DNA of 63,984 bases, filler included, from Asterionella formosa (taxonomy: Eukaryota), in assembly GCA_002256025.1 (NCBI GenBank). It is 5 parts of 5 records of this genome, joined end to end, with 100 filler letters (N's around TTAATTAATTAA, not from the genome) between each part and the next. Parts side by side here need not be neighbours in the genome. Positions count along the whole stretch, not along the records: positions 54,081 to 63,984 come from NKIB01006994.1; 4 more parts are not named here. The stretch is one strand, 5' to 3'. The notes under the pieces are model-generated. The model saw nothing but the letters and a program-made list of their open reading frames with translations, was not told where the DNA came from and did not search any database. Positions 12,669-63,984 of the stretch are shown in pieces. Position numbers and translations under genes: made by a program. Position 1 is the stretch's first letter. Every line of letters starts with the position of its first letter.

Positions 12669-13433
12669 TGTGTAGGTTTGAAAAAGTCCTGATATTGAAA
12701 CGGAAACTGTAACTGATACTTTGTTTCACTGTCGGCGCCTTTCAATTGCAACCTTTTGACTTTGTCTTATACCCAAACCTTCCTAAAGACTACGAAACCA
12801 GCCTTTTAAGCTGAATGTCGAGCAGTCAGGCGATGATCCGTGCCATAACATTCCTGTGTTTTGGAATCCGATATTCTTGACAGTTCAGACGTGTGTTATT
12901 TATGTTTACCTGGGGTACCGGTATTCGATCGCGATGATGACCGACCACACAGATCTATGACCATAAATACTATTTGAAAAACATGGCAGAGGATGCCTGC
13001 ATTTTGAAGGGTGTTTCAATTCATTTAGTCAGCTATTTATATTTGCACAAAGATTCATATCAATATTCTAACGCGTATACCAGTCATACATACCAAAAAT
13101 ACCAGTATGTAACATCGGAATTTAGTGTCAAGAATATTAGCCCGAGTCACAAGGATTGTGGACTCGATTGTAATCGAACGAGTCGAATATTGCATTGCCA
13201 CGTCAATCAGCTGTCTAACGAGATCAGAGATTGAAGATTTCTATGGAAATGTTAAGTGGAAACTCGAAGAGAGTCTTAGAATGACTTTGCAGGAAGCAAA
13301 GATGCATGGAAAGGAAACATTTAGTTTAGCTTATAATTTAATTTGAGATTTAGATTATCAACCGAGGAAACAGTGTGTTAATTGACAGGAAGGTCAATTA
13401 GTCTATCTAGCAGGAAGGCTAGAAGCAGAGACA

Positions 13434-13533
13434 NNNNNNNNNNNNNNNNNNNNNNNNNNNNNNNNNNNNNNNNNNNNTTAATTAATTAANNNNNNNNNNN
13501 NNNNNNNNNNNNNNNNNNNNNNNNNNNNNNNNN
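13434..13533. other. Assembly gap pad (44 N + TTAATTAATTAA + 44 N)
   Basis: Identical 100-nt construct at four sites; the linker gives stops in all six frames. Confidence 0.97.
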
Positions 13534-19810: not shown

Positions 19811-22800
19811 TCAATAGGTCCTCAATGTTCTCCCACCACTCCCACGACCCCTGCCCCCTCCTCCACTATGCCCTTGTCCAGTTGCAGTACCTCGTCCCTG
19901 CATTCCATGGCCTTGACTTTGGGGATAACTCCTGTCAATTCCACCACTTCGGCGACTTGCAGATGATGCAACCACATCTCTATCACCACGACTTGTTCCA
20001 AAGTTTTGGTCAATCTCTTGCATTGTGAGTGGTCGATTCCGAATAAGTTGCAACTTAGTCTGCTCCAGGTAAACATTTCCACCTCCTTCACCATGTTCGG
20101 AGCTTTCAGCTTCATACTGAAGGACATGAGCTTTCAACATGTCACGCTCCCTTGCAGCCTCATCATCATTCTTCTCTGCTTGCTTGGCTAGGTTTGTGTC
20201 TTTGGGAACAATGAGTTGTTTTGCCTCAACTTTACCCTTGTTACTCTTTTTAAGAAGCTGAAAAGTAACTCCTTCCATGCCACCAAGTGCTATTGCGAGT
20301 GGCGATTCCTCACCCTTCTCCTTCTTTCGAACAAATTGAGAGCCAGTGATCATGTTGTCAGCAACCTTTCCTCTCGACTGTGCGGAATTTTTGCCCTTAT
20401 CCAGAGCTTCCATGGTGACACGGCGGAGCTCGCGTTCAAAAGCCTCTTCTTCAAGCTGTTTCATGTAGGCACCCTCATCGATGGATTCAGCATCATCATA
20501 CACTTCATAGTCCTCAGAGTCAAAATCGTCGTCCTGAAGATCATCCACTTCAACACCATCCTCCTCCTCCGCATTCATGATTTTGTTTTCATCTTCAGTA
20601 TCTGTTTCACTTTCCACTTCATCTTCAAGGCTTTGAGACATGACATCAAAGTCATCATCATCAGCCAGCAATGCAAGCTCAGCATCACCCAATAGTTCCA
20701 TTTCTGTAGCGGCTCCACCTGCGGCCACAGTTTCTAAGCGAGCTCGTGCCCTTTCAACTGCCAAATGATCTTTTTCCTCCTGGAGAACTGTAGCATTATG
20801 AGCTTCCATCCACGATGAAAACCGAGGAAAGCCGATACTATCGTCATTTTTGACTTCCGCCTCACCTCTCTTTCTCCTTGCCTGTGATGCTTTCTTCCAT
20901 TGAGAATCAATGGCATCAAATGTATCTAGCAAAGCAAACTCAACATCCATTGGTAAAAGCGATTTGGTGAAAAGATATCGCTGGAAAGCTGAACAGAAAC
21001 CATTTAGGGCCAGGAGATTGCCCTTCGTGACAAGAGAAGTTGTTGCCACTTCTAGTAGTGAACATACGAGCTTGATGCGGAAGGCCGAGTTTGGAGGGTC
21101 GAGAAGCGAAGGAACGCGAGGGTCGAATTTAGAGTACTTTGACACTGCAACAACCTCAGGCGACTTTTCCAATTCGTTTGTCACTAACTGAGTGTCGTCC
21201 ATCACTTCATCCTCCCCAATGGTTTGGGATACTCCTCCAGAGGAGTTGTATACAGGCAGATTTTCTGAGGCCTTAAGGTTGCCCACCAGTTTCTCACTTG
21301 CTTCCCGAAGAGCTTCAGGGATCTCGTGGCCAAAGTTTAAGAAGTTGTAGAGCTGTTGAAGGACAACCTGTCCAGTAACAAGTGATTTCGTAAGCAGCTC
21401 TCCCAGTAAGCGCGCATATGTGATGGTCCTTTGTTGATCCCTAAAATTTGGGTTCTCCAGAGCACTTTGTATTTCTTCCAAACAAGCATCGACAAGCCTA
21501 GTAGCGGCTTCTGGTTTGCCACTGCACATGTTTGCTGCAACTCCCGCAACCGCCGAGATAACGTTAAACCTTCCCTTTCGACACGCTTTCAGCATGTACC
21601 TGCAAATCAAGGCTCCACATTGCTGGGAGGGATCGTTCCAAGGGAATTGCAGCAACTGCTTCGAAACAAAAAGAATACTTCCTTTTCCTGGCTCTAGTTT
21701 GACAAGCATCAAATAACGCAAATATGACTCCAAAGGAGGGTACGCTTTGGCCTCTTTACGGGGTGCACTTGGTGGGGGTTTCACCATGTACATTGCAGAT
21801 TTAACCAATGCATTGGCTCTCTCGTCCAAATGCTATTACAAGAGGAATTAGAAATATTAAGAAATGCGTGATGTGAATGCCTAATTGAACTGCTTACCTT
21901 GGCATTTGAAATTCTTGTCATGGCATCCATCAACTGAGAAATCATAGAAACAGTGTGTTTTGTTCGATAAAGATATCTCCCACAAGACTCCAAAATGCAA
22001 CAAGCAACATCCACATTGAAACCGGTAAAGTCGTCAAGGCATCGGCGAAAACAACGAAGCGAGACAATTGGTGGAGCAACACGAAACTTAGTCAGCTCTC
22101 CAATGTAACGTGCAGTCTTCAATCTGCCTTCCAAGTTTTGATTCTTCTTGAATTTTGCTTGCCCATGAAACTGCTGCTCCAGATCAGCAACAACCTGTGA
22201 TGCAAAATCGGAGTATACTCTATCCAAAATAGCCAACATTCGAGAATAGTAAGGCAATAAATCCAATCTACTACGAGGAACTTGAAAGAGAGTTTTGACT
22301 AGACGCTTTCGAGAAGTCTTTGAAGATCCATGGTTTAAGCAAAACTTCTCCGAGAGCTCGTCAATCTGTTCTCGCCTACTGCATTCAGGCAGCTCTTGCT
22401 CCAATAGAACCGCGAGTCTATAATGAGGATTGTCTTTATCATTTTCGCTCCTTTTACCATCATTCCCTTCTTCTTTGTCATGTTGCTCGACTGCTGCTTC
22501 CTTATCCAAAAACTCATCTTCTGAAGTGGGTTCTATTTCTGCATTCGCATCGTCTATATATTGAGCAGCTTCCTCTCCGTATTTCCTCAGATTTTCTCGC
22601 TTGACACGCTCAATTTCTTCATCTGACATGCCTAGTAGGGCTGGTGGAATTGTTGCCAATAGGTCAGAAATGTCACAGTAGAAAGATCTGGTTTCTTCGT
22701 CATCGAAGGGGCCGAGATCATCGTCTCCTCCCTCTTCCCCCTTTGTCCACAGCTCGATGCCCTGTCCCACTTCGTTTTCTTCTTCCTTTTCTTCGATAAG

Positions 22801-24240
22801 TGCAGGCATGACCTGATCCAAGACGTCGCTCAAGGTTTCCACACTTTTGTAAAGTGACTCATGAAGCTTTCGCGCATCCATTAAACCCTTTTCGCGAGCA
22901 TCGGATAAAGATCCCTGCAACAGACGATCTTGCTCGCAGCGTTTCTCTAATTTACAAAGTTTTTCATGTGTCGCAATTAGAGACTTGGAAAGAGTATAGT
23001 ATGCACCTTGACAATGGGTATAAAAACCTTCTGCCACCTCAGGCATGACTGCTCGCAGTTGCAGCACTTTATCGACTTTGTCAATTACATCCTTTGATTT
23101 CCTCATCAATTCCTCAGTCATGACTACTAGGCACTCGTCTTCTGCGCTTGCTTCGAACTTTTTCACTTCAGTAGCCAGCATTGTGAGATCTTCCCGAATC
23201 GACCTAGGTATGCCTCCTAAAATCTCGAAGCCCGCCGCTTTACAAAAAGACACCATCACGTTGGCGTCAGATACAGCATAAGTGCCAGCCGATCCTCCTG
23301 TTACCTCACCAATAAGCTTAATAAGTTGTTTGGGTTCGCGAATAACTCCATTCAGAAGAAACTCAGTCATTAGGCGAACGTAAATGCGCCTGAATTTGGC
23401 AGTCTCCTCCGTCGGTTTCAAGTGTATGGTTGACCACATGGTCGGGACTAGGTTTGGAAGGAATTCAGCGTACCTAGCATGCATGGCAACGCAAAGTGCA
23501 ACTAAAACAGGGAAATCGCCAACTTTCAATTTGGCCTCAAGCACCGCTGCTGCGACTTCTTCCACGTATCGAGTAAGGTTCAGTGTCAACATATCACTAA
23601 CAACATCGTCAGGTTTCATGGACCACACTACTCCAGACTTGACTTTCTTGACAAATGCAGTGCACTTCTTCAAATCGCTCTTGATAGATTTTTTTGCCTG
23701 TTCGAAGTCCCCACGTGACTTCACCAGATTCTCGGCGGAGAGATTGTCTCTGTTCCTCTTATGGGAAAGTGTGGTCGCGACAAAGCTTTCTAAGGCTGCA
23801 ATATTATCTTGTACCTTCTTGATTATTGCCTGACACTCGTTCTGGCGGGCAAGCTTGATGGCTTCATTCCTTTTCTGCTCTTCTTCAAGTAGCTTACGAA
23901 CGGCTTCCTCGTCTTCCATTTCTTGCTTGCGAATAGCTTCCGCTTCTGCCACTTGCTGCTTACGCTGAAGCTCCTCCTCATGACAAATTTTCTCTTCTCC
24001 CGAAAGTGCCTTGTCCTTAGATACATTGGATCGCTTGCGACGATCGCCCTTGCCTCTTTTTCCTCCTCGGCCTCCCTTTGGCTGAGAGTTTTCGGATAAA
24101 CTGAGATTCTGGATGGAATCAGTAGCCCCGTCAGTGCTTTGCGCATTTCCCTTGTTCCCGCCCCCACGACCACTTCGGCCTCCCTTGTTCCTGTGACTAC
24201 TTCCTCGGCCCCGACCAGAGGGAGCAGGCTGCTCGGACAT
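19811..24240 (-). CDS. UPF2: Regulator of nonsense transcripts 2 (UPF2); exons 24240-21898 and 21832-19811
   Basis: KSDLKKCTAFVKK, LNLTRYVEE, RLDLLPYYSR, RYIGELTKF, ILESCGRYL, FRIKLVCSLL, plus an acidic region and C-terminal Upf2 domain (FQLLKK.NKGK). Phase-0 GTAAGC...TAG intron 21833-21897 joins the two long ORFs (about 1454 aa). Confidence 0.93.
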
Positions 24241-25387
24241 GATCAATGACTCCGGCGATTGATTGAATATACAACCCTAACACCTATTATCCGTACTACC
24301 ACACACATGTGCAATAAATTAATTTATTTGCAGCATTTCTTAGCTGCCGTACCGTTAGTATATACATATTGTCTACGCAACGGACGACTTCGCAGGCTTT
24401 TAGTACCCGTAGTCCCATCGGGAGGAGAGCAGACAGGATCAAGTCAATGTCGTCTCGCTCTAAGACATCATTATGCCGGGTTCATGTATAAAGTAAATCA
24501 TTAGAAAAAAATACAGAAATTCTACCAGCAGGATTCAGATGCTGTGAGCATCTGTGTAGGCCAGATCCACCATTGCAGAACCCTTCCCCCAACTTGAGGG
24601 AATTGGCAAACAAGGGGCGGATTTGCCAATGCTTGAGAGATGGGAAGACATGGTGGTGTGTCAGCAGCAAAGGAAAGTGGTATAGATGGAGACTGACCAT
24701 TGAAAGAAGAGGAGGCAGAAAGTAGTCAGAAAAAAGATATTGAACAATGTATTGTAAGGCCACATGTTGGGATAGGAGAAGGTGGAGAAATAAGGATGAT
24801 AATGGCGAGTGCCCCTGGTTATATTTTTATGGACATATTTAGTGCCCCTGGTTAGACTCTTATGGGGGTGGTGAGTGTCTGCTTAATATTCAGTACCGAG
24901 TAGCATGTGCATGTAAGAGTGCCACAATCAGTATTGGTCATATGTTTTGCCACCATACTGTGCCTGTTTCTTACCATATAAATGACTGTACTACCAGGAG
25001 AGGTATATTGTAATATTGTTCTGTTGAAAAGCAAAATGGATAATGATGCATTTGTGGCTGACATAACATGGAAGAAACCTAGTACTGGAATATATAAAGA
25101 TAGGATAGAATAGGGAAATTGCTCAGGGCACATTGCCTTTGACTTCAAGTTTTGTGGTTCGATTCCCAAAATTTTTTGAGAAGCAATTGTTGGGTTCGAC
25201 TCCCACACTCCTCACTGTCCCGCGCAGTCTTGCCTGGTCTGCAAGGAAGAGTGGGTTGCCTCCCTACAAGCAGTGTGCCACCTTCCTAGGTGGTCGGAGT
25301 TTCCGTCTGTAAATAAAAAACCCGTTAGGCCTAACAGTTTTGCTGTACGACCCATTGCCCCAAAAATTCTCAGTATGACGTATCATT

Positions 25388-26964: not shown

Positions 26965-27064
26965 NNNNNNNNNNNNNNNNNNNNNNNNNNNNNNNNNNNN
27001 NNNNNNNNTTAATTAATTAANNNNNNNNNNNNNNNNNNNNNNNNNNNNNNNNNNNNNNNNNNNN
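26965..27064. other. Assembly gap pad
   Basis: N-run with TTAATTAATTAA linker. Confidence 0.97.
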
Positions 27065-27779
27065 TCGCAATGCCGCTGAACGTGCAATTCGCACCTTTCA
27101 AAATCATTTCATTGCCGGTCTATGCAGTGTCGACAAACACTTTCCTCTCCACTTGTGGGACCAACTACTAGTTCAAGCCGAACTTACTCTTAACCTCCTC
27201 CGTGGCTCACGCATCAACCCCAAACTGTCTGCTTGGGCACAGGTCAATGGAACCTATGATTACAACCGTGTCCCCCTTGCTCCACCCGGTTGTCGGGTCC
27301 TTGTTCATGCCAAGCCCCAACACCGCACCACATGGGCTCCGCATGCTCTCGATGGTTGGTATGTCGGCCCTGCTGTGGATTCCTATCGCTGCTACCGCAT
27401 CTGGATGTGGGACACACGTTCAATCAGAATCTGCGATACTGTCTCGTGGTTTCCAACCAAAGTCCACTTACCCTGTAATTCATCCACTGACCTCATCACA
27501 ACCAGTTTGCAGGACATTGCCTATGCCTTGTTACATCCCACCACTCGGTCTCCCGTTGCACCACTCACTGCAACCCACAAAGCTGCTCTCCAGCAGCTCC
27601 TTGAAATTCTCTCACCGCCTGAGCTCAACCAACTACCCATTGCTCCCCTCCTGCATCACCCCATTCCATCACTGAGGGTGCCCGGTACAACCACAGCATC
27701 CACTATCCCCCTTCTCCCTGATCCTGATGCCTGTACACCTTTCCCGGTCTCTCCCGCCCTCGATGGCACCGCCCAACCG
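27065..27779 (+). mobile_element. Ty1/Copia (CoDi-like) integrase C-terminal fragment
   Basis: RNAAERAIRTFQNHFIAGL...FPLHLWDQLLVQAELTLNLLR.SRINPKLSA...PLAPPGCRV...TWAPHALDGWYVGPA..YRCY. Confidence 0.9.
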
Positions 27780-28062
27780 TGTTAATATCTGCATATGATG
27801 CTCCATACATGCGCCGTACGAACCATACCGGCGCAGCCACCAGATTAGGTACATGCGTGAGTGCTGACAACGATGTACTTGGAACAGCAATAGAATAGTC
27901 ATAATATTGTAGTTCACCTTTATTCACGATAAGGTTCCCCTCAACAGTAAGTACCCGCTTCCACATATATAATATGATTGGTGAGCATGAAGTACATTCC
28001 TCTGTTTGATTGGCCTGGTTTGCGAGGTCGTGCAAACCCACGCTGGCCACATTGGATTAACA
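27780..28062. repeat. Candidate LTR (283 bp) truncating the integrase ORF
   Basis: Begins TGTTAAT and ends ATTAACA (7-bp terminal inverted repeat, TG..CA); abrupt composition change at 27780; no TSD seen. Confidence 0.5.
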
Positions 28063-29732: not shown

Positions 29733-31829
29733 TTAGACACGTAGTTGTGGATGCCCACCATTGCGGCGATCTTTCAACATTTGGTTGAGAATTTGAGTAA
29801 CAGTCTTCTCTGGACCATATGCCTCATAGATTCGGTCGATTACAGCATGTGCAGTGTACCCAGCTTGAACAAGACCTGCCACTCTATCCCAGAAAACCTT
29901 GCGTCGATAATAGATAAATTTTGTCCTCCCCCTCTCTGCCCGGCCCCCTTGTAAATATCCTTGCTGGTTTTCGTCCTGTGATTCCAACTTCCCATTCTTG
30001 CCAAAGAACAAATAGTGTTTTTGGTGTCTTGGAAAGGCTCCTATTGTAAACAGGATCCAAAGCCATATTCGTTTGTTCATCGTCATTGCCTGCTTGGCTG
30101 TTGTTGTCGGTTCCTATGACAGGAAAATTTTCGACATTTGAATTTGGGCTGTTGTTGGCATTTGTTATGCCGAAAGCAAAATTAGAAACACTGCCCCTGA
30201 GCATTTGTGCCGGCATCCGGGAAAGTCGATTCAAGCTTGTCTGCATCTTGCCCATCCCTTTGGTCACATTGGTTGTAAGGATGGAAATCTGGCTTTGAAT
30301 CTCCTTCACCTCTCGTTGTATCTCCCTTTGCTGTGAACACAGCCCAAGAAATTCGTTCTTGTTCCGGTTCCTCTGAATAAATGCATTGACGGCTTGTTGT
30401 TGGTGGTACTGCTGTATGCCTCCTCCGCCATTATTTACTGTTGAAACTGCAGCTACTCCTGTTGACACTTCAGCGACTTCTTCACCCACATTGCTCGAAA
30501 ACTCATCTGGATCCCAGATCTCGTCAATGTACAGTTCCGCCCCTGCACCATTCACAACAATTAGCCGTTTCCCCACAGGATTTGTACCTGGTGTTAGATT
30601 ACTACGTACAAGTGCGTATGCCATCTGGATCCGTTGTGTCAGCTTGCCTGGTAAGAAACCCAGTAGACTTGGCTCAAAACCGCCCAAACAACAAGGAGTG
30701 GACGTGCCAGCGTTAGTGCCATTACATATTGCAGAAGCCAATCATCAGACACACCGCTTTCTTCATTCAGAACATACTTGCATGGGCCGCCAATACCAAG
30801 GGCTGCCGCAACCTTGGCGTCTGGATAAGGTAGCTCAACATCAATGTAAGTGTCAACTTGTTCTGTGCGCCGTTTCCAGCATCCACGGAAGGCAACATCA
30901 TCCCGGGAGCAGCCATTTCGACGTGCATGTGTTGATGGGTACTTCCGAAGGCTGTGTGTGCCAATCAAACTATTGTTCATTCGTTTGAACTCACTACTTT
31001 CCCATACATCATCACGCAGAATTGTATAGGCCTTTCTTTTAGCATTTGATGGATTGTTGGCTGGTTTGTAGCGAAAACACCCATGGATTTTCGGGTGATG
31101 CGCCTTGTTCCATACATTCTGTCTGAAGATGAATGGCCAAGGCAAGGAGAACGCAATAGTATTGCGACATGGATGCAATGAGTACCTGGTTTGGTGCCTC
31201 CCTCTCTTCTTTAACGTTTTTTGTCCAACACAGCTTGGCCATCAGAGTGAAAGGAAATCGAAGATTTGCAGTTAGGTTTATCTTTGTTAATTGCACACAA
31301 TCGTCAATTCGGCCAACCATGTGGAATTGAAAGGCACACAGTGCAGGCAACTGATACCGATGGATACTGTCCTTGAATGAATGAAGGATATGCATTGTAT
31401 TGGAGAACTCTTGGGATTCTAGGGGTCGCGATGGTTTCCCTTTTCTGCGCACTTCCTTCTTTTTTTCTGCCTTGATGAGGTTATTGACACCAGGCATAGA
31501 CCTTGTTGGATTGCCACTGTGCATAATAGCATTCCAAGTGGAGAGTCGATTGGGCATAAAATACGACAATGCCTTTTTTTAGTATTGCAGGGAAGAAGAC
31601 TGGCCATGTGTTGGATTTTCATCATTGTTTGGATCAGGACGGCCATAGACTTTCATAGCCATCCATTTGTAGACATCCTCAGGTGTAACTTCCCCAAGTT
31701 CCTCTGGACTAAACTTGTAGCTTTTAGAATATTCTATGCCATCTCTGTATGACATCATAGCAATTAGGACACCTTGTAAAAAGGGGATTGTGTAGGTTCA
31801 TTTCCTCTTCTTGTTGGCATTGTCCCCAT
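29733..31829 (-). mobile_element. Crypton-type (stramenopile) tyrosine-recombinase transposon ORF with C-terminal GCR1_C-like domain; frameshifted
   Basis: FQFHMVGRIDD (catalytic R), WTKNVKEEREAP, GTHSLRK (HxxR), RGCWK, VDTYID (Tyr), then LSKTPKTLFVLWQEWEVGITGRKPARIFT...YYRRKVFWD. Several stops and frameshifts. Confidence 0.88.
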
Positions 31830-36300: not shown

Positions 36301-39300
36301 CATTGTTCGCCTCCACAAACCGACTCTCTCAACTACCACTTCAGCCATTGATCTCTTCAACACCATGAAACCAGCTGGTTTATATCATCTTATCCATCTA
36401 CGCATGGGATGTCCTGGTCGTCGCTCTATGGAATTAGCTACTGCTCAATGGTAAAAGCGTTGTTGGATTACCTGCCAATGTTATCATCCCAGACACTTTT
36501 TCTTGCCCTAGTAGTCTATCTGTCTCAAAGAAAAACAACCTTCACTATCCAAACATCTTATCAGGGAAACACCATTTAAAGTAGTTGGCCAAATGCTTCA
36601 TATGGATTTTGGTTTTTATGGCAAACAATCCTGTTGGGCGGGGCTTCAAATGTTTCTTAGTTGCCACTGAAGCTATTTCCAATCACCATTGGAAATTCTG
36701 TCGGCAATCAAAAACCACCCTGGTTAAACTTATTCTTTGGATTATACAACATGTTCAAATTAGAACAGGCCAACAAGTTCGACGTATTTGTATGGATGGT
36801 GAACTGTTTGCTAATGATACATTGAAAATGCAACTTTCACTACTACACTTTGCTGTTGAACCTACTGGAGCATATACCTCATCTCAGAATGGGAAAGCAG
36901 AGGTGTCTATCAAACTTATTGGTTTAACAGCTCCATGCCTCATGTATGGAGCACAAAAGGACCCTTCTTTCTGGTGTTTTGCTGTTACCTATGCAACTAT
37001 TCTCCTCAATGTGCGCCCCTCTGATGCTCATAATGGCAGAACTCCCTACGAAGTTTTTCATAAGCATGCTCCTAATCTCTCTATGGCATTCATTTTTGGA
37101 TCTCCTCTTCATGTTAAAAATTGTCGAGCAAGTCATCATCGGCCAGATTCAAACACCCTCCTGGGGAAATTTGTGGGTTTTCAAGGTATGGCTCACATTT
37201 ACCAATACATTGGTGATTCTGGACGAGTCCAATATGCACACCATGCAGTTGTCAATGAGTTATGTGTTCATCGACTCCCTCATGATTGTTCCTCTGCGGC
37301 TAAAGCTTTGCTGGACCATCCTGCTGGCGATCAATCTGTTGGAGCTCATACTCTAGCGCTATGACATGATGCAGTAGAGAACCTTATTCCCAGCTGTACT
37401 CCATGGCTTCCGCTTGACATGGCTGTGATGTCCCAGCTCATTTCATGAGGCCATGAAGGGACCCTTTAAGGGAGATTGGACTGCTGCTTTATTTTCCCAT
37501 CTTGACAACTGCCACAGTATTGGTACTTTTGGTCCCCCATCAGTGCCTCCTCATGATGTAACACTTTTGCCAGCTGTGCTAGTGCTCAAACATGTTCTTA
37601 ACACAGCAAAGCAAATCAATGATCGCAAAGTCCGCCTTTGTGTCAATGGAAGTTTCCAAATCAAAGGAGTGGATTACACTGAATCATTTACACCCACCAT
37701 TTTGGCTATGTTCATCAAAGTCTTGTTAGCTACTATTGGGACATATCTACACTATGACTTTTATCATCTGGATATCAGCAATGCTTTTCAAAATACACCT
37801 GCACCTCCTAATGCTGCTGGTAATTGTATTTGGCTTTGTGTATTCCCAGAATATCTACTCTGGTTTCAAACTCAATTTCCTTAAGAACATTTTACTCTGG
37901 TTTCAAACTCAATTTCCTAAAGAACATGCCACTTTATTTGTGACACTCCCTCTAAATAAGGTTCATTATACTTCTTGCATAAAAGTGTCCGAAAATGCAC
38001 AATGAGTTGGTCGGGGGAACTCGGGATTACTTTTTTTTGACTAAATTTGTAGCAAATCAATAATAATTTTTATCAATGATAGAAACTTTTCCTAACTAAG
38101 TTTTCAATGACCCTTTTTACTTAGTACATTGAAAATCGAAAAATAAAAATATATTTGTACTCGGATGCATAACGTATCAAATGTAAAACTTACGTTTTCG
38201 ACATAGAATACATCATACATGCAACAGACCTTGTATATACTTTGTACATTCCGCATATAGAATTACATATTACCGGTATGTATGTTTGGCGTACATACTA
38301 CTAGTTATGTACTACCAGTACTTGCGTGTGTGTTTGTAAAGCTGCATGTGGTATGGGGTCGATGAAACAGCAACTCCATCTTGACCATGACGAAATTATG
38401 GAGTTGAATATCTTCACGAATATTGACAATGAGCAATTCCTATTTCGCAGGTGTATGTAGACTAACATAGACGAGATAATCAATGAATAATAACATTTTT
38501 TGCACTAGTATTGACAACAAAAAGTTAAAATCGGCGCTGGAAGTTGTTTCTGGTCGTCATTTGCTCAGTTTTGAAGATATGACCAAAGTAGCGACAGTTT
38601 TGAGTCCGCGGTGATTAGCTTGATAACTTTTACTAGATAAAGTTTTATATGTTTTGTAGAAATAGATGAGAAAACCTGAGCGACAGTATTCTCGGAGAGG
38701 GTACAACATTTCAAGATGCAACAAATTCCTCTACGTCAATTTTGTAGTGACTATCATGTACGCACTAATTGTCATGGTTCATATTTCTATGGAATCTTGA
38801 TAAGGTCATTTGACACCTTACTATAGACATACTTTCAGCCATTCGACAATAGACTGCTTGTTCTTTACGTGAATAAAAAGTTCGCATCACTGAAATGATC
38901 ACGAACTCCCCTGACTGACGGTTTATGCATTTTTCGACACTTTTATGCAAAAATTGTATTCTTTTCTCTCAATAAACAACCCTGGAAAGATTTAGGAGTT
39001 GAAATGTTTGCACATGTTCAAGGCCGCAAAGATGCTTTGCGCAAGTGGGGCGAACATGTTGACAAAGTTATCTGTTGACAACTCGGTCTCACCAAAAACT
39101 GGGCAGATCAATGTATCTATCAAGGGACCATTAATAATCACCATGTCATTATGGCTCGAGCAACAGATGATATTCTCATTGGAACACGCTCTTTAGAGAC
39201 CTACAACCATTTAGTTAGTCACCTTGAATCTCACTGGAAGATTCACAATATGGGAATTGTCTCACATTTTTGGGTCTCCGATTTCTTTTCAGCAGTCCAC

Positions 39301-40479: not shown

Positions 40480-40579
40480 NNNNNNNNNNNNNNNNNNNNN
40501 NNNNNNNNNNNNNNNNNNNNNNNTTAATTAATTAANNNNNNNNNNNNNNNNNNNNNNNNNNNNNNNNNNNNNNNNNNNN
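40480..40579. other. Assembly gap pad
   Basis: N-run with TTAATTAATTAA linker. Confidence 0.97.
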
Positions 40580-53980: not shown

Positions 53981-54080
53981 NNNNNNNNNNNNNNNNNNNN
54001 NNNNNNNNNNNNNNNNNNNNNNNNTTAATTAATTAANNNNNNNNNNNNNNNNNNNNNNNNNNNNNNNNNNNNNNNNNNNN
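53981..54080. other. Assembly gap pad
   Basis: N-run with TTAATTAATTAA linker. Confidence 0.97.
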
Positions 54081-55120
54081 AAAAAAAACCCCCCCCCAAG
54101 CCCCCCCCCCCCCCCCCCCCCCTCCCATTATTCAGTTATGCTACTATTTGAAGGTTACTTACTAGATAAACTCATTTGAACTTCCTGTCAATTAACACCA
54201 TTTACCAAATTGTTAATTATCAATTTGGTCGACCTAAATTAATTGTTTCCTTCACATGCATTGTTTGCTTCTCGCAAGACATGAGCCATTCTAAGAGTCT
54301 CGTAGAATTTACACTTAATAAACTGGAATTTGATCCCTATAGAAATCATCAATCTTAAATCTCCTAAGCCAGTTGATTGGTGTTTCAATATATGATTCAA
54401 CTTGTCGGAGTATTATTGAGTTCAAGGTGCTTGTGACTCAAGCTAATATTCTTGACAAATATGTAGGGTCACAAGCTCCTTGGTTCACCAAAATTTCCAT
54501 TTTGTGGAGGGCAACATAACATATTTCTCCGCAACCTAGAGCTTGGCTGCTGTTAAAAATGGGTTACTGACACTGCTAGCTGAGGCATTTTTCTAGAATG
54601 ATAACTGATTATCATTAACTGAACAAATTGACAAAAAAGCATTTTCATTTTTGAAAATTGCCGTTCTAAATTGGAACAATGGACTCAGAGATTGCCAAGC
54701 CTTCCAGTTCATGTTCCTTTTTTCTTCAGTTCAAAGATTTTTGGTACCTGTATTGATGAAAGTGAAGAACAAATGGTTCTTTTGGTGATCAATCCCTCAA
54801 AATATCATACAATCTAAGTCAACAATGCTGCAAACTTCTGCATTCCTACAATCCTGATTGGATATACTGTATTTGCAGCATAATGAAAAATGATTCTTGA
54901 AGTCGAAGCATGCCCACAATAGAAAATCTGCAAAGTTAACCTTTCCCTGTAGACACCATGGTCAATAATGGCTAGAGTAAAGTAACACTGGGGAACACAT
55001 GAAAATTGCGCCTGCTTGGTTTCGCACTGTCGTGACAGAGTAAGGCTCTGAAATTTGGTTGATCATGTATTCAAAATTGAACTTTCTTGATCGTTTCACA
55101 CGTTCACATATACCAAGCCC

Positions 55121-55678
55121 TCACTCATCCTCCGAATCGCTCTCACTATCTTGACCGTTCATTCTAGCCACTGATCGATTTGTGTTGATGAACAAGTCAC
55201 AGTCATCTTCCACAAAATCATAGGAAATCCCATCACAAGCAATCGCCTCTTCATGGAAATGACCTTCTTCCAAGTTCTTATTAAATGTTTCTAAGAATTG
55301 TTCGTCAGCGTTGTCCTCAGAAAATTCAACAGGCCACAATCCATTACCCCGTAAGTGCTTGATCTGCTCTTTATATAAAATGTGAGCAATCATGAATCGG
55401 ATGCCTCTTGCATTTTCTACTCCTTCCAGTTCACTCGAAGGCTCGTCCCCCTTCTCCACAATCACATAATCTCCCCGCTTGACCCAAACAAGTTTGTGAA
55501 ACTTTGCGGGGAGGAGCGCCAGATGTTCCTGGCCTTCGACTTGGATTTCGAACTGATTGCCTCCTCTGGTTGCTTGTACTTGGGCAATTCGTTGACTTTT
55601 AGTTGGAATGGGAAGGTCGTTCAAGACATGGTCCGTGAGGTGCTTACGATAATTGGAACGGCGGCCTGCTCCTGCCAT
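55121..55678 (-). CDS. EIF1AD: eIF1A-domain RNA-binding protein (EIF1AD-like)
   Basis: OB-fold motifs RIAQVQATRGGNQFEI, LALLPAKFHKLVWVKRGDYVIV, ILYKEQIKHL...LWP.EF, DLFINTNR and an acidic tail; ATG at 55678. Confidence 0.9.
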   Translation of the reverse strand: MAGAGRRSNYRKHLTDHVLNDLPIPTKSQRIAQVQATRGGNQFEIQVEGQEHLALLPAKFHKLVWVKRGDYVIVEKGDEPSSELEGVENARGIRFMIAHILYKEQIKHLRGNGLWPVEFSEDNADEQFLETFNKNLEEGHFHEEAIACDGISYDFVEDDCDLFINTNRSVARMNGQDSESDSEDE

Positions 55679-57231
55679 GGTGAAAGCTTTTTTAGTGGCT
55701 GTGATCACCAACAGGTCAGTTCTACCGGATAAAGTACCCGTACCACGATTCTATGTAGCTCCACCGCGGACAATCGACCGGTGGGGAATATTTGAGAAAA
55801 TGCTCCCGGACGAGCGATTGTCCGGTGGATATCGTAAATGCCTGGGACTAGTATAGTTAGTAACATTCTACTAAAGGCTAAATAAATTTATGGAATCCTT
55901 TGTTGTGTACACGGATAAATTTTCGTGAGTTTCAAGTGTGTAAAAGAATTTTGAAACATGCATCACGATCAACACACTTACGCATCATGGTGTCATGTTC
56001 CATCATTTCATTGCTGCACGACTTGATGGCTGCTCACATATATCATCCTCTTGGCGAATGCTTGATGCGCTTGGTAGGTAGGTCTTACATAAAGGCATAT
56101 AGTAGTTGATGTAGGTCCAAATGCATAATTTAAACAAGTTATATAGAACAGCAAGTTTTCAAAGATTTGCTATTCATGTATCATTTCCTGGTTTCACAAA
56201 TATTTACCTCCATCATGCCAACATAACTTGGCTATACTCAACAGAACCTCTTTTAATGATTGACGGCAAATTATTTCAATCTTCTGTTCTGCGAGCAAAA
56301 CTCGTCAAACTCAACTCGATTTGAATTTGAATTTTAATAATCTGTAGTACTAGTAGCTCAGCAAACCCAAGTATAATTTTCGCTTTCCATTGAGTTACTT
56401 TTCTTTGTTATGATTGTTATGATTACAGATTCATTCAAACAATCAATGATATGTTAGTCTTCGTTTTAACAAGTTGATGCAAATCAAATCATGTTCCATT
56501 TTTCGAGTTGAACTGGCTGTCAGTGGACCCCAACCGAATTTCTTATTCAATGAATTAATAGCCTTCGTCGTGAAAGTTGATACACAGAAGAATTCTTGAT
56601 TCCTGATTCCCAGTTAGGTCTCCACTTTTGTGTGAAGAAAAAATTTCCCTTCTTGTCGTTGTGTTTAATACAACAATGCACAATTAGGTACCACCAAGGT
56701 TGATAACCTTCAGACATTTGATAAAGAACAATGTTGAAGGGCAAATTCTATCAAGTTTCCCCTACTATGTTTATCAAACAAGCTTGGTAAACCCTAAACT
56801 ACGAATGATTGGAGATACAAATCATTTCTGTCCAAATGACTGAAGAACAATCGAATCATCCTATTAAAGGATTGAGGAAGAATCCAATCATCATAGCGGA
56901 GATACCTGAAAGAAGTATCTCAGTAAAGGAACATCTATATCCTAGAATCTATCTAGGCTAGATAAATTTATATGTTACAAGGAATAGGATGTAATGTACT
57001 TCACAACAGCTGAAGGAACTATGAAGAATCTCGCCTCCAAGAAACAAAGAACAATTCATTTCAGAAACATGTAGGAGTTGCCATGTTTTAATCGAAACTT
57101 CATTTCAAAATTACATTTAGTTTAAGCTCACTCTTTCAGAAAACACACAAGTGGAACTACCGGTACTACGATTGTTGACAGAATTTTATATCGTAAATTG
57201 TACTCCGTACTCATACTACTCACCGAATGCT

Positions 57232-59164
57232 AACTGCCCACAAATAAAGCATAAATATCAATTTTAGCTTACATTGCCCATCATATAAAATATATTTCGA
57301 ATATTTCCTATCTTCACCTCGAAAATTGCCAAAGGTCCGATATTGCCCATCATTAAAATATTTTTTGTATATTTCATATGTTCGCATTTTGGCAAGACAA
57401 CAGACGCCAATTGCCCCTCGGTTTTCCAGCCCTGGGATTGCCGAAATCGGCAAGGGGTCTACTTAAGGAAACCATTTTATATACTCTACAGATGTTAATA
57501 ATTTATATCTAGAATTCACCTCGTTTTTGTTCGTCTCCGCCTGAGAAGTGGACTCCGGCAATTCACCTTTCACCATGCCAATCGTCGTCCATCATGACCG
57601 GTTTGAAGCGAAATCAGTTCCGTGATGACACCAGTGGCGATTCGTTGTCTAACGGATGCGGTTGGTTGTTGGGTAGCTTGTCTTTTCGAGGGATTCATGT
57701 AGTTGCATCGTCCATAATTTTGTCGGACGAACGATCATATCGATACATCTGATGTTGGTGGCAAGCTTTTGCTCCGGTCATGCATGTAATGATGCTTAAC
57801 GGATATTCTACCGGTAATGGCAGCAGTCATCTAGTCTACATACGTACGTGGTACTAAAAACAACCCCATGCATGGTTTAAGCTATACTTTAATGCTTACT
57901 TTGAACACGTTATAATATTATCTCTGTAGACTCGGTATTATGTAGACTTGGTATTATTTTTACGAGACCTGAATGTTAAATTATATCGTTCACATACTCA
58001 TTGATTTTATGTACCGTATGCCTGATTTCGTCCTTTCAATTTTAGTTCTCACTCTATCTTGCTTGCCTGCCTTTGCTCTATTCGGGCTTGCAATAGGCAA
58101 CATTCGTCTTTCTTTGATCCCGTCGTCTGCTGCTTGTTATGATATTTGAAGCGGATCGGTGAGTACAACAGTGTGTGAAACACTGAATGTGGATTGTAGA
58201 TTTTATTTATCGACTTTTCGATTTGATTGCTTCCGTGGTTTGTTTTGATCGCTTCCATTGTTGTTTGTCGTTCTGCACTGTCGTTTTGTTTCGACTGTAT
58301 ATATCTATATAAGAACCGATGCATTTTATCAATGACTACTCATTTAAGATTTGGTATTGTGCCATTGTTGATCGTATTTGTTGATTTGTATAGTCGTTGA
58401 CAATGATGTCAATATTGCTGCCAAGCAATGCTTTTCTTCTACTAACGCGCTTTGCTATATTTCTACTACGAGTTGTTTATATCAGAAGCTACATGAATAC
58501 TCAGCTAGAGAGAGTCAATAGTGCTGGAGCAGCGTGGCGATCACGCTTGCTCAGAATGGAATGATCAGGGTTGCTTGTTTGGTGGGCGGAGAGGAAGAAT
58601 GACTGTGGTGGAAATACTGCTACTGGTGTCAGGCTACTACAGCGATGCGCATGGTTGCAGCAACCAGACCATTTACGCTACATAACGATGCAGGTCTAGA
58701 TTGGGTTCAGCTTTTTTGCTTCTTCTTTTGGTCTGCGATTGTGTGGAGATGGAAAGTCAATGTTGCCTGTGTAAGTACTACTACAATGATTCACAATGCA
58801 TACGTCTCCATTGAAACTCTTTTTATTATTCACTTCATTTCTAACCCAAAACAATCTTTTCTATTTCTCATTTGATGCTACTTATTACATCGCATTTCAT
58901 ACTTTGGTTGCTCCAAACATCTTGTTCAATTTTCATTGATGTTGCATGTTACAGTCATTCTTGTGTGTTTTACGTTTGTTGTACCATCTCCATGCATATT
59001 ACCGTTATTTTGGTTGTCATGCTAAAATTGGCAATGTTATTGCCGAAAAATTCGATGTGCCCCATATTGCCCTTAAATAAAAATTACTTAAGAAATTACT
59101 TAGAGCCTAAAAATTACTTAGAACTACCTGAATGGCAAGATGATAGCTGAAGCGGTAATTGCTG
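57232..59164 (+). mobile_element. Non-coding unit 1 (A1...B1) sharing both ends with the adjacent recombinase-bearing unit
   Basis: A1 (~57232-57760) is similar to A2 (~59209-59780), e.g. CAATTGCCCCTCGGTTTTCCAGCCCTGGGATTGCCGAAAT. B1 (~58890-59164) is similar to B2 (~62750-63056). Confidence 0.75.
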
Positions 59165-62100
59165 AGGCAATTCACAAACTAGCTATCGTTGCGCCATTCG
59201 CTTACCTACTGCACACTCATTCAGTGTAAATGTCAATTTTAGCTCGCTATAGCCCATCATTTCGTATATTTCTTATCTTCACATCGAAATTTGCAATGGG
59301 TCCGATATTGCTCATCATTAATATATATTTTGTATATTTCCCATGTTCGCATATCGGCATTACAATTTGTATCAATTGCCCCTCGGTTTTCCAGCCCTGG
59401 GATTGCCGAAATTGGCAAGGGGTCTACTTAAGGAAACCTTTTCATATAATCTACAGGTTTCAGTAATTTATATCTAGAATTCACGAATCTGTTGTAATAT
59501 CCATCGATTCTGTTTGTTTCTTAAAATGTGAGGGCGGAAATACAGCTTTGACACAGTCAATCATCAACCATCATGCCCAATCTGAAGCAAAATGTGTTCA
59601 TTGATGACGAAAGTAGCGACTCGACGTCAAACGGATTGGTTGGTTGTTGGATTTCTCGTCTTCACGTGGGATTCATGTCGTGTCATCATACCTACTTCAT
59701 CGTGGTGGCGCCAAAATTGTAATTCCTATTTCAATCGAACTCCAAAAGTCTCATCATTCATCATCCGATCTGTTGGAAACTGATGATTCGCATGATTGCT
59801 CATCGATACCATCGTTGATTGGACTTTTGGGGACCAAGATTCATGGGTTGCGCCGGTAAGGAGGAGTCCATTTCGCGCCATCGTTGTCAGATTTTTGGTG
59901 CTATTTCCAGACGTCATGTTCAGTTACAATTCAAAAATGATTGTTTTAGTATGTATTCTACGTGAAGATCAGATATGATGGCTCGGAAGCAAGTTTGATA
60001 GTGCTTTTTGGGCGGCTCTAAAATATAGATTTGTTCTGTTTTCATTCAATGTTATTATAACTATAACATACTGATTATTCTACAATGATAACGGGAACTA
60101 GAAGCCGTCGTTTTTCTCAAAGAGCAGTGACAAAGACTGCTAAGCGCAAAGAGCAAGATGGTAACCGGCGTGCTGCATTGTCATTGTGTGCACTGGCAAG
60201 GAAAAAGAAGCTTGGGTATGTTGTTGATTGTTGTGTGCTTCCATGCTGCCCTTTTGGTCGATTTCATCCTAGCTAACATATTCAATCAGTTTATTGGAAC
60301 AGAATGAGGTTGCTGCAAATGCTGCAAGTATTCCCGATATAGCCATTGAAGAAAGCGACAAAGAAGTAGAATATAGGTGTGTTTGTTGTTGATTGTTGCA
60401 TCATTGGCTGTGCTTCCGTTCCTTGGTTTTGCAATCACTCACAGTTGCATTGTTTTTTCTTGTCATTGTCAGCTTTGTTAAGGAAACTTGTAAAAGCAAT
60501 GTATCCACTACAGCTGTAAAAGATTCCGATTTAGCAAAACACCATTCTGATTTTGAAAGCTCCAGCTCTGTTGATTGCAGCAACAGTAGCGCATGTGATT
60601 CTGACACGAAGTACTACCAAAGAACTTTTACTGTTGTTGATCCTACTAACGCTGGAGCTCATGATCGCCACCATGATTCCTGGAATCCAAAGTCGGTTGC
60701 AACTGCTGAAGACTATGCAAATGCCATTAGATCCAGCAACTGACGCACAACACGCCGAGCAGGTATACCAAGGCACTTACCATCATTGAAAGCAGATTCT
60801 TTGAAACTCTTGTCGGAAATCCAACCTTTGCCTCGCTTGCTTGTACGGATCAGGATCCCGACAACGGAAACCAGCCAATCCATCGATTCTATCTACTTTG
60901 TTGTGGCTTACAATGTAACGCTACCAAGGACATCATCAACACTGCTGTGCTTTGGTTCGCAACCAAAAATCACCCGTCATCCTTGAAAGTGCACCTGACA
61001 AACAAGCCATCGCATCAGCAATGTACCAACCGAACACTGCCCAAACCAAGCTGAAAGATCTCTTCCGATGCTTCTCCCGTCAAGGCATCCCGTACTCCGT
61101 GTCGAAGGATTTCAATGGCGAGGGTGAGATTCAAGCATTTAAAAAAATATATGGCAATTGCTGCCAAGCACTGTCCATTGGAATACGGTCACAAGCCTAT
61201 GGCGTCACAGTTCGTATGATGATTGCCTGAAGTCCATGGTAGCTATGGAAAATGGGCAAAGCGTTCGGTGTTAGAGGTTCAATTGAAATGTGCGATTTGA
61301 CTTTCAACAAGGTGACAGTCGGTTTCTTGGACGGACTACAAACTGTCATGCTACATCCAAGTGAAGTCGAAAAAAATAATGCCCTGACGTTGCAACATCC
61401 TGAGCGGAAGTACCTGGTACCAAAGTCTACAGGAACGTACCATGATCAAGGATGCATACTGGCAACCCTACATGCATAGTGAAGCTCATACATCAATACC
61501 GGGATAACCTCTGTTCGCCCAAGATGGTAACTAGCAACCAACCGTTCTTTCAGCGACGTGCTCCTGAGAAGGAGCTCAAGGTATGTATTTCTACAATACA
61601 TTTGTTCTGCTGATTCCAGGTACTGGTGATTTTTTATGCATACCGGTACATATATGCACATTATGCATACCTTCTATGTTCTAACTAAAGTGCGTCTTTG
61701 TCTACATTGCTTCTTGTATACTTGGAACTAAGAACCGACGCAAGCTAGGGCTAACATACAAGGCAGGACGCAAGAAGGAATACTACTTTGGTAAAGGCTA
61801 TGCTACTAGGCTTTGTGTTGACTTAGCTACAGCTTCAGGCATGGATAATGCTGCTCATTGCACTGCCCATGGTAGGAGGATTTCTTCACTTGTCAATTCT
61901 AGTGTTGCATTACTACCTATGAAGATTATTCTTGATAATCCAGGCATGGATCAGCGGAAATAAATGCCAGGTACCAGCTCCCATCTAAGGAAATGCAGCA
62001 TCAAGAAATGATTGCAGTTTTTGAGAAGTTTGAAGATGCCAAGAAGGACCAGCTTGAAACTCCAGAAATATATACTTCTGGCTTTGCATTTGTTCCTCCT

Positions 62101-63056
62101 GATGTGAACAAATCAGTTGAAATTTCAACTCCAATTGACAATCATCCTACTGTTGATTGTAAAGTTGTTTTGATGTCTGTTACTGTGGCACCTCCTGCTG
62201 TGGCTGCTCCAGCTCCAGTTCACTACTACTCCCATCTGCCTCAAACACCTCAACACATATACACCATTTCTGGTCCGCCCGCCGCCTCCACAGCAAGCAA
62301 TCTACCATTCCGGTCCCCCTCCCCCTCCCAAAAACATTGCATATTCCTATCAGCAGCCATATTTTCATTCAATGCCGGGGCCACCACAACAAATGTACTA
62401 CTCCTCCCATGCTCCTCCTCCTCAAGCATACTATCATCTGCCACCTCCGGCCAGCAGCAGGCAACCTCCACCACCAGCTGGCTTCAACTCCAGCACACAC
62501 CCATCCACCTCAACCTCACCAACATCAATATACTATTACCCCAGCTCCTCCTCCATTTTGAAAAATTCATTTCTGTGATGACGTGAACGAAAAACAGAAT
62601 TTAAGTTTTTTGTGACGTTGAAGTTGAAAATATTTTGTGTTGAGAGTTTTCTCACCCAATCTATATTCCTTTCCTTTTCTCTTCTTTTGCTCTCTCTCTA
62701 CTTGAATCATTTTCTTGTTGCTTACCTTTGTTGTTTATGATTCAATCATGAAATCATACTTTGATTTCAAAAAACATGATGATCAATTTTTTGACATCTA
62801 TATGTTACAATCATTTTTGTGTGAATTTTTCCATGGTCAAAAATTTTCTCTTCTCCATGGTGTTCTTTGACCAATTGAAAAAGCCAACATTTACCATTAT
62901 TCTGGCTGTCATGCTAAAATCGGCAATTTTAATGCCGAAAAATTCGATGTGCCCTATGATGCCCCTAAATGAAAATTACTTATGAAATTACTTAAAGCCT
63001 AAAAATTACTTAGAAGTGCCCGAATGGCAAGACAGTAGCTGGAGTGGGAATTGCTG
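59165..63056 (+). mobile_element. Unit 2 (A2...YR...B2): Crypton-like element with decayed tyrosine recombinase
   Basis: Ends shared with unit 1; internal recombinase remnants. Confidence 0.72.
60760..62586 (+). pseudogene. Tyrosine recombinase pseudogene (DUF3504/Crypton-like) with Pro-rich tail; probable intron ~61581-61731
   Basis: YQPNTAQTKLKDLF, AFGVRGSIEM (catalytic R), FFQRRAP, HCTAHGRR (HxxR), RHGSAEINARYQ (His...Tyr) across frameshifts. Confidence 0.7.
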
Positions 63057-63569
63057 CTTTAATCACCCTTGATCATGGTGCTTTCCACCCAAGCCACTCC
63101 TCCCATGCCCACTCCTCCTAATATTCCTGTGGCTGACACTATCTCCTTCACTTCTGATCATCCCCCATGTAGGGGGCAGGTAAATACCGGTAAATCCTCT
63201 CTCTAATCCTCCATGTCTACATTTGAAACTTCAGTCAAAACTGGAAAGCCTCACTTGGTATATTTATCTGTACCTTACAACATGGTGCACACGTGCACGC
63301 ACAGTAGGGCAATTGAAGCGGAGAAGGTCGTAGCTTTATGGCTGGGTGCATGATTGAAGAACATATAGTAGCTCTAGTAGGCCTGGTACAAACCATTATT
63401 TCTAAAAATATAGCTAAATATTTTGTGCGATGAATCTCTTGTTGTTACAACCATCATTATGTTGATTGCGCTCGGTTGGTTCCCTTTGCTTCCCTTCAGT
63501 GCCTTGTGTTTTGCGATATAGTATTAGAACCGTGATCATAGCGCTGATCGGAAACCAAACCGCAAAACA

Positions 63570-63969
63570 GATGACATCAAACTTTCAGTTGTTTGGACGA
63601 TATTTTTCTTTGGTGATGGCGGAGTCATCACTACGTGGGCGCTGGATTCCGGCCGACCTCCTCATTCACTACATGAACCAAAAATTCAACATTGGAAGCG
63701 ACATGCTTTTGACTACGCGAACATTGATGACATACATGAACAAGTGCTACCCTTCAATGTCCTATGATCCCAATAGAATCACCATTCCAAGTGGCACAGT
63801 GGTGGACTTCTATAGAGCCAATTGTCAAGTCAAGAGCGTCCGCTACAACCTATTCTTCTTTTCTGACCATGGTTCTCCTGCTCCTTTGTTTCCGAAGAAC
63901 AGTAATGTCGCTTCTTTTCTTAATAATAGCGTCACAAAGCGACTATTAGGGGGTTCAAGGCAAATTTGA
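63570..63969 (+). CDS. Uncharacterised ORF, possibly the first exon of another mobile-element gene
   Basis: Open frame of about 130 codons from an ATG, with protein-like composition; no recognisable motif. Confidence 0.3.
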
Positions 63970-63984
63970 ACTGCAGAGGTGATG

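Follow-up and report, generated by a model that had tools for sequence, protein, structure and literature searches.

The stretch of DNA analysed here, referred to as the window, comprises 63,984 nucleotides of the Asterionella formosa assembly GCA_002256025.1 and carries, in record NKIB01006994.1, two abutting units (units 1 and 2) of one heavily repeated family of a eukaryotic microbe encoding a Cre/QRICH1-like tyrosine recombinase (YR). An imperfect palindrome lies where the right end of unit 1 meets the left end of unit 2, and an earlier note had interpreted it as a recombinase crossover site, an interpretation that is partly supported by the present analysis. Since the window consists of five separate pieces of ~13.4 kb that were artificially joined by N linkers, distances and neighbourhoods across the linkers are meaningless, and only positions 54081-63984 are contiguous with the palindrome.

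The two units, their palindrome and their recombinase gene

The features on which the analysis is based are given below. "Right arm" and "left arm" denote the terminal arms at the right and left ends of an element, M is a palindromic module found outside the left arm in other copies, and L001-L008 are copies from metagenome contigs.

57233-59164, + strand: unit 1, a non-autonomous family member of ~1.9 kb without module M and left arm; its left boundary near 57229-57233 is abrupt
59167-63056, + strand: unit 2, a decayed autonomous copy of ~3.9 kb with remnants of the YR gene
59130-59162, + strand: right terminal arm of unit 1, identical with the left arm of the palindrome; 27/33 positions agree with the right arm of unit 2, and the same arm is found at the right ends of L001 and L007
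59160-59163, + strand: TGCT, common to right ends and complete left ends; putative crossover region
59163-59166, + strand: TGAG, the spacer separating the two arms; other copies have TGAAG or TTGAG here
59167-59207, + strand: left arm of unit 2 (palindrome right arm, 59167-59199) with the conserved GCTTACCT; an inner arm, kept in 6/6 other copies reaching it
59381-59420, + strand: 40-bp block identical in units 1 and 2 (within the regions 57408-57472 and 59373-59437); candidate internal protein-binding site
60393-62586, + strand: remnants of the tyrosine recombinase gene with the motifs GVRGSIE (R box), AHGRR (HxxR) and RHGS..INARY (H, Y)
63022-63056, + strand: terminal right arm of unit 2, in which TGCT occupies 63052-63055; the adjoining flank is unrelated

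The two 33-nt arms of the palindrome (59130-59162 and 59167-59199) are inverted about TGAG without any gap and pair at 22 of 33 positions, including the blocks GAATGGC, GATAGCT and AATTGC, just as the earlier note had described them. Pairing of at least 22/33 around a spacer of 4 occurs at 2 of the 63,899 centres in the window and, with spacers of 0-10 allowed, at five places only. Random pairs of 33-mers from the junction segment agreed at 8.5 positions on average and reached 22 in one of 200,000 cases. When the segment 59125-59204 was folded as single-stranded DNA a z-score of -3.33 was obtained, and none of 200 shuffles was equally stable. The junction palindrome is confirmed as real and far above chance.

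The left arm of the palindrome recurs at the far end of unit 2 (63022-63054, 27/33), and the similarity between the two right ends (58999-59164 vs 62891-63056; 87% over 166 nt) ends directly past AATTGCTG, both in agreement with the earlier claims. The units abut end to end. They are not equal repeats: unit 1 is non-autonomous and truncated, and the left parts (57233-57709 vs 59208-59687, ~480 bp) are 74% alike, the right parts having ~270 bp in common at 76-87%. The missing left arm of unit 1 is evident from a comparison in register of 57192-57232 with 59167-59207, in which 11 of 41 positions agreed in a count by eye. Upstream of the truncated unit, at 57170-57195, ATTGTTGA is followed by AATT and TATCG, an arrangement loosely resembling M, TTGAG and the left-arm site that may represent a decayed relic or chance.

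The stretch was detected in runs labelled as algae and as freshwater, river and lake metagenomes, and in a run of one named organism; the data of these runs are contigs, in which circles are invisible. In run X1 a total of 112,543 contigs were placed on 56800-63400 at 80% likeness. Their summed depths, which are not copy numbers, amounted to 1.1-2.5 million over 57242-59230, to 0.10-0.16 million in the two bins left of 57242 and to 0.012-0.065 million within unit 2, with a fall at 57242 and past ~63056-63208. It is evident from this contrast in depth that the non-autonomous form greatly outnumbers the autonomous one.

The inner tips of both arms consist of the word ATTGC/GCAAT, whose enrichment in both ends is 5-10 times. 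Within 58897-59687 the motif ATTGC[CT]/[AG]GCAAT was counted 8 times compared to 0.85 in shuffled sequences, and none of 2000 shuffles reached 8. This excess is consistent with repeated binding sites for a protein. The 40-bp block holds a small palindrome of its own (TTGCCGA-AA-TCGGCAA in unit 1, with one mismatch in unit 2) and is far better kept than its surroundings, also in all 8 metagenome copies; its conservation there is partly a matter of selection, because the pattern used to retrieve these copies lay within the block.

The YR gene of unit 2, which putatively contains a GT..AG intron at 61581-61690, is interrupted by two in-frame stops at 61231-61242, by frame changes at ~61400-61460 and by the loss of 1 bp at 61936, behind which most other contigs have an extra A. 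No open reading frame (ORF) of more than 215 amino acids is found in the 3.9-kb unit. A word-based search with the R-box piece resulted in 5 matches, all of them unannotated metagenome gene fragments, the best being P0001 with 88% identity, and the HxxR piece matched 12 fragments of this kind. Motifs of the AHGRR type and RHG..IN.RY were intact in all seven C-terminal homologues retrieved (of 12). Thus, the catalytic residues R-H-R-Y of a tyrosine recombinase are present, in broken frames in the window and intact in the homologues.

P0001 matched DUF3504 with an E-value of 0.0035, which lies below the Pfam cut-off, and Pfam analysis of 4 C-terminal homologues revealed no meaningful family. A phmmer search with P0001 recovered 282 proteins at E<=0.001, 102 of them at E<=1e-10. 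Among 18 long relatives three showed sub-threshold matches to DUF3504, one a sub-threshold match to Phage_integrase and 14 nothing. One long relative, P0140 (E 1.5e-9 and 31% identity to P0001), was modelled with AlphaFold2 from an alignment of 33 sequences; the mean predicted local distance difference test (pLDDT) score was 72, with most of residues 80-450 above 90. The best matches of the model in the PDB were QRICH1 (E 6.4e-6) and many Cre structures (E from 1.5e-4 upward, template-modelling score of 0.48-0.59 relative to the target), followed by weaker matches to XerA, Flp, XerH, lambda Int and Tn1549 Int (E 0.03-0.05 for the latter). According to the accessible text of Kojima & Jurka (PMC3212892) the DUF3504 domain of QRICH1 is derived from Crypton recombinases. 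No Pfam match to reverse transcriptase, RNase H or transposase was detected at E<=1 in 8 ORF pieces of unit 2. Taking the YR motifs, the QRICH1/Cre fold and the lack of reverse transcriptase and transposase together, the designation of the units as Crypton-like in the earlier note is justified: the only recognisable protein is a YR with the R, HxxR and H..Y motifs, and the family has a Cre/QRICH1-like fold. This class assignment stays above the level of the clades A, I, S and F.

Independent copies and the position of the element ends

The metagenome copies L001-L008 were retrieved by an exact-pattern scan with a conserved 22-mer of the left end and comprise 8 contigs of 1.0-1.8 kb. As the pattern represents the left end only, right ends seen total four. 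Unit 1 is 89-96% alike to L001, L002, L004, L006 and L008, and L003 is 78% alike to unit 2 over 59266-60967. The exact 22-mer yielded no match in prokaryote genome contigs, and likewise none was obtained in the exact-pattern scan of a viral contig collection. Two bacterial contigs (L009 and L010) from metagenome-assembled genomes contain a right-end 21-mer exactly, and were rejected as copies of the element as only 21-25 bases match, which is attributed to chance.

The left arm was found in all six of the 8 metagenome loci that reach its position; L003 begins further in, and L007 is rearranged at this point. The right arm is present at 4/4 right ends seen. Both arms are therefore conserved parts of the family's ends, as had been proposed. 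When the left arm was compared with the reverse-complemented right arm, 27/33 positions agreed within L001 and between L007 and L001, and 22/33 and 24/33 in the window. The inverted arm tips are perfect over only 6 bp in the window, and the first 12 bp are identical in L001. Judged from these alignments, the arms are the ~33-bp imperfect terminal inverted repeats (TIRs) of the family, of which the 22/33 pairing in the window is a decayed instance. It follows from such repeats that every junction of a right end with a left end is palindromic, with the structure arm - T(T)GA(A)G - arm.

A second right-end/left-end junction is present in an independent assembly, L001, in which a right end (92% alike to 58731-59175) is followed by TGAAG, M, TTGAG, the left arm and a left end that is 93% alike to unit 1. 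Precise abutment on the left end of another copy was thus found for two of the four right ends seen. The comparable junction in L001 argues against an assembly artefact, in which two repeat copies would have been misjoined at a shared k-mer, as does the fact that the arms have only exact words of 6-7 bp in common, too short for such a misjoin. An artefact might be expected in a region as repetitive as this one, 59100-59250 is not spanned by any of the 32 contig pieces that were listed (out of 91,048 placed), and contig L007 looks chimeric; stretches without listed bridging contigs are, however, evidence neither way, and overall we regard a misjoin as highly improbable. As to L007 itself, its positions 863-1011 contain a right end in reverse complement, 92% alike to 59055-59163, which runs directly into the interior of a left end and skips the left arm; a short shared word near the ATATTGCCC motif marks the fusion point. 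L007 may be either a rearranged copy or a chimeric contig.

The solo ends, i.e. those joined to non-element sequence, indicate where the element breaks. Both solo right ends (unit 2 in the window and, in reverse, L007) stop past AATTGCT and then diverge, and all three solo complete left ends (L002, L005 and L006) begin TGCTGAAG-GCAAT. The left flanks of these three copies end in TGCT, which is followed by GAAG and the GCAAT of M, and ATTGCT is seen in two of the three. According to blastn the five solo-end flanks are mutually unrelated. TGCT consequently fits 5/5 solo ends, and a single TGCT is found in both tandem junctions (L001 and window), the sample being limited to these 5 solo ends and 2 junctions. 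The earlier note had predicted that ends should break at TG|AG in the core. The right ends do break within 1-2 bp of the predicted place, but it is TGCT, not TG|AG, that the solo ends have in common. Three further resemblances in the flanks were dismissed. The target arms in the three left flanks agree with the right arm at 2-3 of 5 positions past TGC, and the word TAATCA is shared by the two right flanks; neither is strong enough to be counted. A 15/17 agreement between the flank of L002 and the inner left arm is, by estimate, attainable by chance in a search space of this size.

Five of the six other copies carry the module M, conserved and followed by TTGAG, outside the left arm, and the sixth, L008, has M inverted at this position. 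M is a GC-rich imperfect palindrome flanked by TGAAG and TTGAG (L001 439-619; L002 622-701), with a length of ~80 bp in L002 and L005 and of ~190 bp in L001, L004 and L006. The terminal arms recur in diverged form as the outer arms of M (19/29 in a hand count), and in this small sample M never occurs apart from the left arm. M has the appearance of a mini-element with two arms or of an additional pair of recombination sites at the left end. Breaks at 59158-59179, with the inner arm of M before the left arm, are seen in at least 38 contigs of run X1, 7 of X2 and 2+2 of X9. The earlier note had named conserved sequence past the core in other copies as a refutation of its reading. At the left arm the other copies do run on past the core into M, and the true left terminus is consequently the outer arm of M.

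The continuation into M left of the left arm in 6/6 other copies, with which contigs of three runs agree, is also what would be expected if the junction were internal to a longer repeat unit or a satellite-like array with its real boundaries elsewhere. This appears quite improbable, since three copies enter unrelated flanks at one same nucleotide beyond M, two right ends enter unrelated flanks directly past AATTGCT, and the contig depth falls at 57242 and past ~63056-63208. In L008 (1-60) the inverted M lies directly at the left arm, with a spacer corresponding to TGAAG read on the other strand. The arrangement may have arisen by inversion or by a separate insertion in opposite orientation, or may represent a head-to-head pair or an effect of the assembly.

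The M-less junction in the window has the exact sequence expected from a crossover between the two sites bounding M within their shared TGA and is thus best seen as an M-less derivative of a tandem of the L001 type. M could have been lost either by action of the recombinase or by slippage. The latter belongs to a wider explanation in which the abutment is passive: the arms would be TIRs without any role in a crossover, and the tandems would have arisen by unequal homologous exchange, slippage or segmental duplication. The extreme abundance of the family makes ectopic exchange between copies likely, slippage between the 15-bp imperfect repeats flanking M would produce the M-less junction, and L007 represents a rearrangement away from the site that was joined at a microhomology. 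Nevertheless, the joining points of the junctions in the window and in L001 coincide to the nucleotide with the breakpoints of solo ends, one TGCT being shared; the units in the window, at 74% and 87% likeness, are different subfamily members and not a recent duplication; and the arm tips consist of a motif enriched throughout both ends. Hence we consider a purely passive origin unlikely.

TIRs of ~33 bp, imperfect and inverted, with a 4-bp repeat on both sides are furthermore reminiscent of a cut-and-paste DDE transposon, for which TGCT would be the target-site duplication and the YR gene a passenger, and Cryptons are described as lacking TIRs in the accessible text of PMC3212892. No transposase-like ORF or Pfam match was found, however, in the 8 ORF pieces of unit 2, and the arms are asymmetric to TGCT, the right arm overlapping it and the left arm starting 4 bp beyond. 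Moreover, the junctions carry one TGCT instead of two, and what the non-autonomous copies have in common with the YR-bearing copy is limited to its ends. An origin as DDE transposon therefore seems very improbable.

Taken together, the palindrome is probably the right arm of a truncated non-autonomous copy that abuts the left arm of a decayed autonomous copy of one Crypton-like family, with the arm-spacer-arm structure as candidate site of cutting and joining. The encoded recombinase would bind the arms of this lox/FRT-like site, and a right-left junction, either of an excised circle or of a resident copy, would recombine with a TGCT-bearing target to give an element bounded by TGCT; a circular intermediate is presumed. 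Since solo ends are bounded by TGCT and the junctions contain it once, strand exchange would take place in or next to TGCT (59160-59163). The crossover at the centre of the palindrome envisaged in the earlier note accordingly gives way to a likely position 2-4 bp to the left. Its view of the junction as the preserved circle junction of one element is likewise not upheld, because the junction is a hybrid joining two different subfamily members.

Several observations weigh against a role of the palindrome as site of cutting and joining. TGCT lies off-centre in the palindrome, and the arms are 4-5 bp apart (TGAG, TGAAG, TTGAG), YR sites usually having 6-8 bp at this place. In none of the 6 other copies does the right arm of the palindrome form the outermost left end, and with the left arm of unit 1 missing the window offers no second junction. 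Considered as a shared overlap, TGAAG fits 3/3 left ends but 0/2 right ends and was rejected. The inverted M of L008 is not predicted by a simple model with a directional spacer, and the loss of M is equally explicable by replication slippage between the 15-bp imperfect direct repeats. With respect to the enzyme, the YR gene in the window is a pseudogene, all Pfam matches of the family remain under the curated cut-offs, and the modelled P0140 is a distant relative and not the window's own protein. Finally, the sample is small and the metagenome contigs are short, and for the assembly of the window junction as well as for circles the data are at contig level only.

A more far-reaching interpretation can be put forward tentatively, though we hold it to be less probable than its negation. 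The junction might represent the first Crypton recombination site described at the sequence level, a lox-like 12-5-12 palindrome within ~33-bp arms and with exchange at TGCT. The left end would then possess two sites, so that M (80-190 bp) and the main element could be excised, integrated or inverted separately, and preferred insertion at the ends of resident copies might lead to tandem arrays.

Other contents of the window

Apart from the two units the window contains host genes, remnants of other mobile elements and the artificial linkers.

3968-4525, + strand: cyclophilin, above the Pfam cut-off
6594-8189, - strand: WS/DGAT acyltransferase, above the Pfam cut-off
10824-12725, - strand: TLC-type nucleotide transporter, indicated by language-model features
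19811-24276, - strand: UPF2 (MIF4G and Upf2), above the Pfam cut-offs
27066-27785 and 36585-37884, + strand: remnants of a Copia-type retrotransposon, with SH3_retrovirus above and RVT_2 just below the cut-off
13434-13533, 26965-27064, 40480-40579 and 53981-54080: linkers of the form N44-TTAATTAATTAA-N44, at a spacing of ~13.5 kb

The host genes are long uninterrupted ORFs, as in an intron-poor eukaryotic microbe, possibly an alga. Two overlapping ORFs at 30639-31578 (- strand) resemble a YR by eye (GRIDD...; HSLRK...RGCW...Y). They gave no Pfam match and show no similarity to the Crypton-like family, and may belong to an unrelated element of the recombinase type.

Comparison with known systems

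With Cre/loxP and Flp/FRT the junction has two inverted arms in common (12 bp identical in well-kept copies) that enclose a short asymmetric spacer, and the P0140 model superposes on Cre. The gap between the arms of lox and FRT is 8 bp. Here, in contrast, it is 4-5 bp, TGCT overlaps one arm instead of lying in a central spacer, and the arms extend over ~33 bp. The accessible text of PMC3212892 gives 11-13-bp inverted repeats around a short spacer as typical of YR sites, a layout with which the arms and spacer of the junction agree.

Starships are likewise eukaryotic elements mobilised by a YR. Their short terminal repeats (TTAC) are described, in the accessible parts of PMC10104507 and bioRxiv 10.64898/2026.09.21.753150, as originating from homology between terminus and target and not from duplication, and the same sources report, for one Starship, a circular intermediate carrying a right-left junction. 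The TGCT pattern observed here matches this terminus-target homology. Starships are, however, giant elements that carry cargo and employ a "Captain" YR, whereas the present family comprises elements of 2-4 kb with a QRICH1/Cre-like YR, of which no circle was observed at contig level.

In Tn916, Tn1549 and CTnDOT imperfect inverted end repeats meet in the circle junction, and integration occurs into loosely similar targets. The family resembles them in its imperfect inverted end repeats, and the Tn1549 integrase is among the weaker fold matches; the differences are that these elements are bacterial and conjugative, with variable coupling sequences and a much larger cargo. DIRS and Ngaro are, like the present family, eukaryotic YR elements, and are considered to integrate from a circle in which the terminal repeats restore the junction, but they encode reverse transcriptase and RNase H, neither of which was found in the 3.9-kb unit 2. 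A DDE-type ORF was likewise not found in unit 2, and TGCT does not lie symmetrically outside the TIRs as in DDE-type elements.

The family resembles the Cryptons in that the YR is the sole recognisable protein and related to DUF3504/QRICH1, that the non-autonomous derivatives share a few hundred base pairs per end (here ~480 and ~270 bp) and far outnumber autonomous copies, and that a short direct repeat appears to be present at both termini, TGCT here and one of 4-6 bp in the Cryptons of fungi and stramenopiles. Goodwin et al. reportedly regarded such repeats at Crypton termini as recombination substrates in 2003. In its accessible text, PMC3212892 likewise treats the 4-6-bp terminal direct repeats of fungal and stramenopile Cryptons as recombination substrates and mentions non-autonomous Cryptons of an insect family sharing 438 and 260 bp of their ends. 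Excision and reintegration of Cryptons as circles is hypothesised and not yet demonstrated according to the available text of PMC10104507, and their movement is still a model. An abundant family with recognisable arms, a defined junction and consistent breakpoints provides a concrete substrate of 30-70 bp, and the intact gene fragments in public data provide a candidate enzyme; together they allow tests of how the YR of a eukaryotic DNA transposon binds, where it cleaves, whether circles form and how targets are chosen.

Crypton ends are described as lacking conserved structural features in the accessible parts of PMC12130899 and PMC3212892, which makes them hard to annotate, and according to the latter TIRs and long direct repeats are both absent from Cryptons, those of animals having no terminal repeats of any kind. 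No description of TIRs, palindromic junctions or tandem arrays of Cryptons was found in a full-text literature search that did not extend to Repbase reports, subscription papers or the supplementary PDF of PMC3212892, where the family may already be annotated. The lack of TIRs is an unsafe rule for the recognition of Cryptons, as is shown by the family described here, which differs from known Cryptons in its ~33-bp inverted arms, in the extra palindromic module at its terminus and in its precise tandem junctions.

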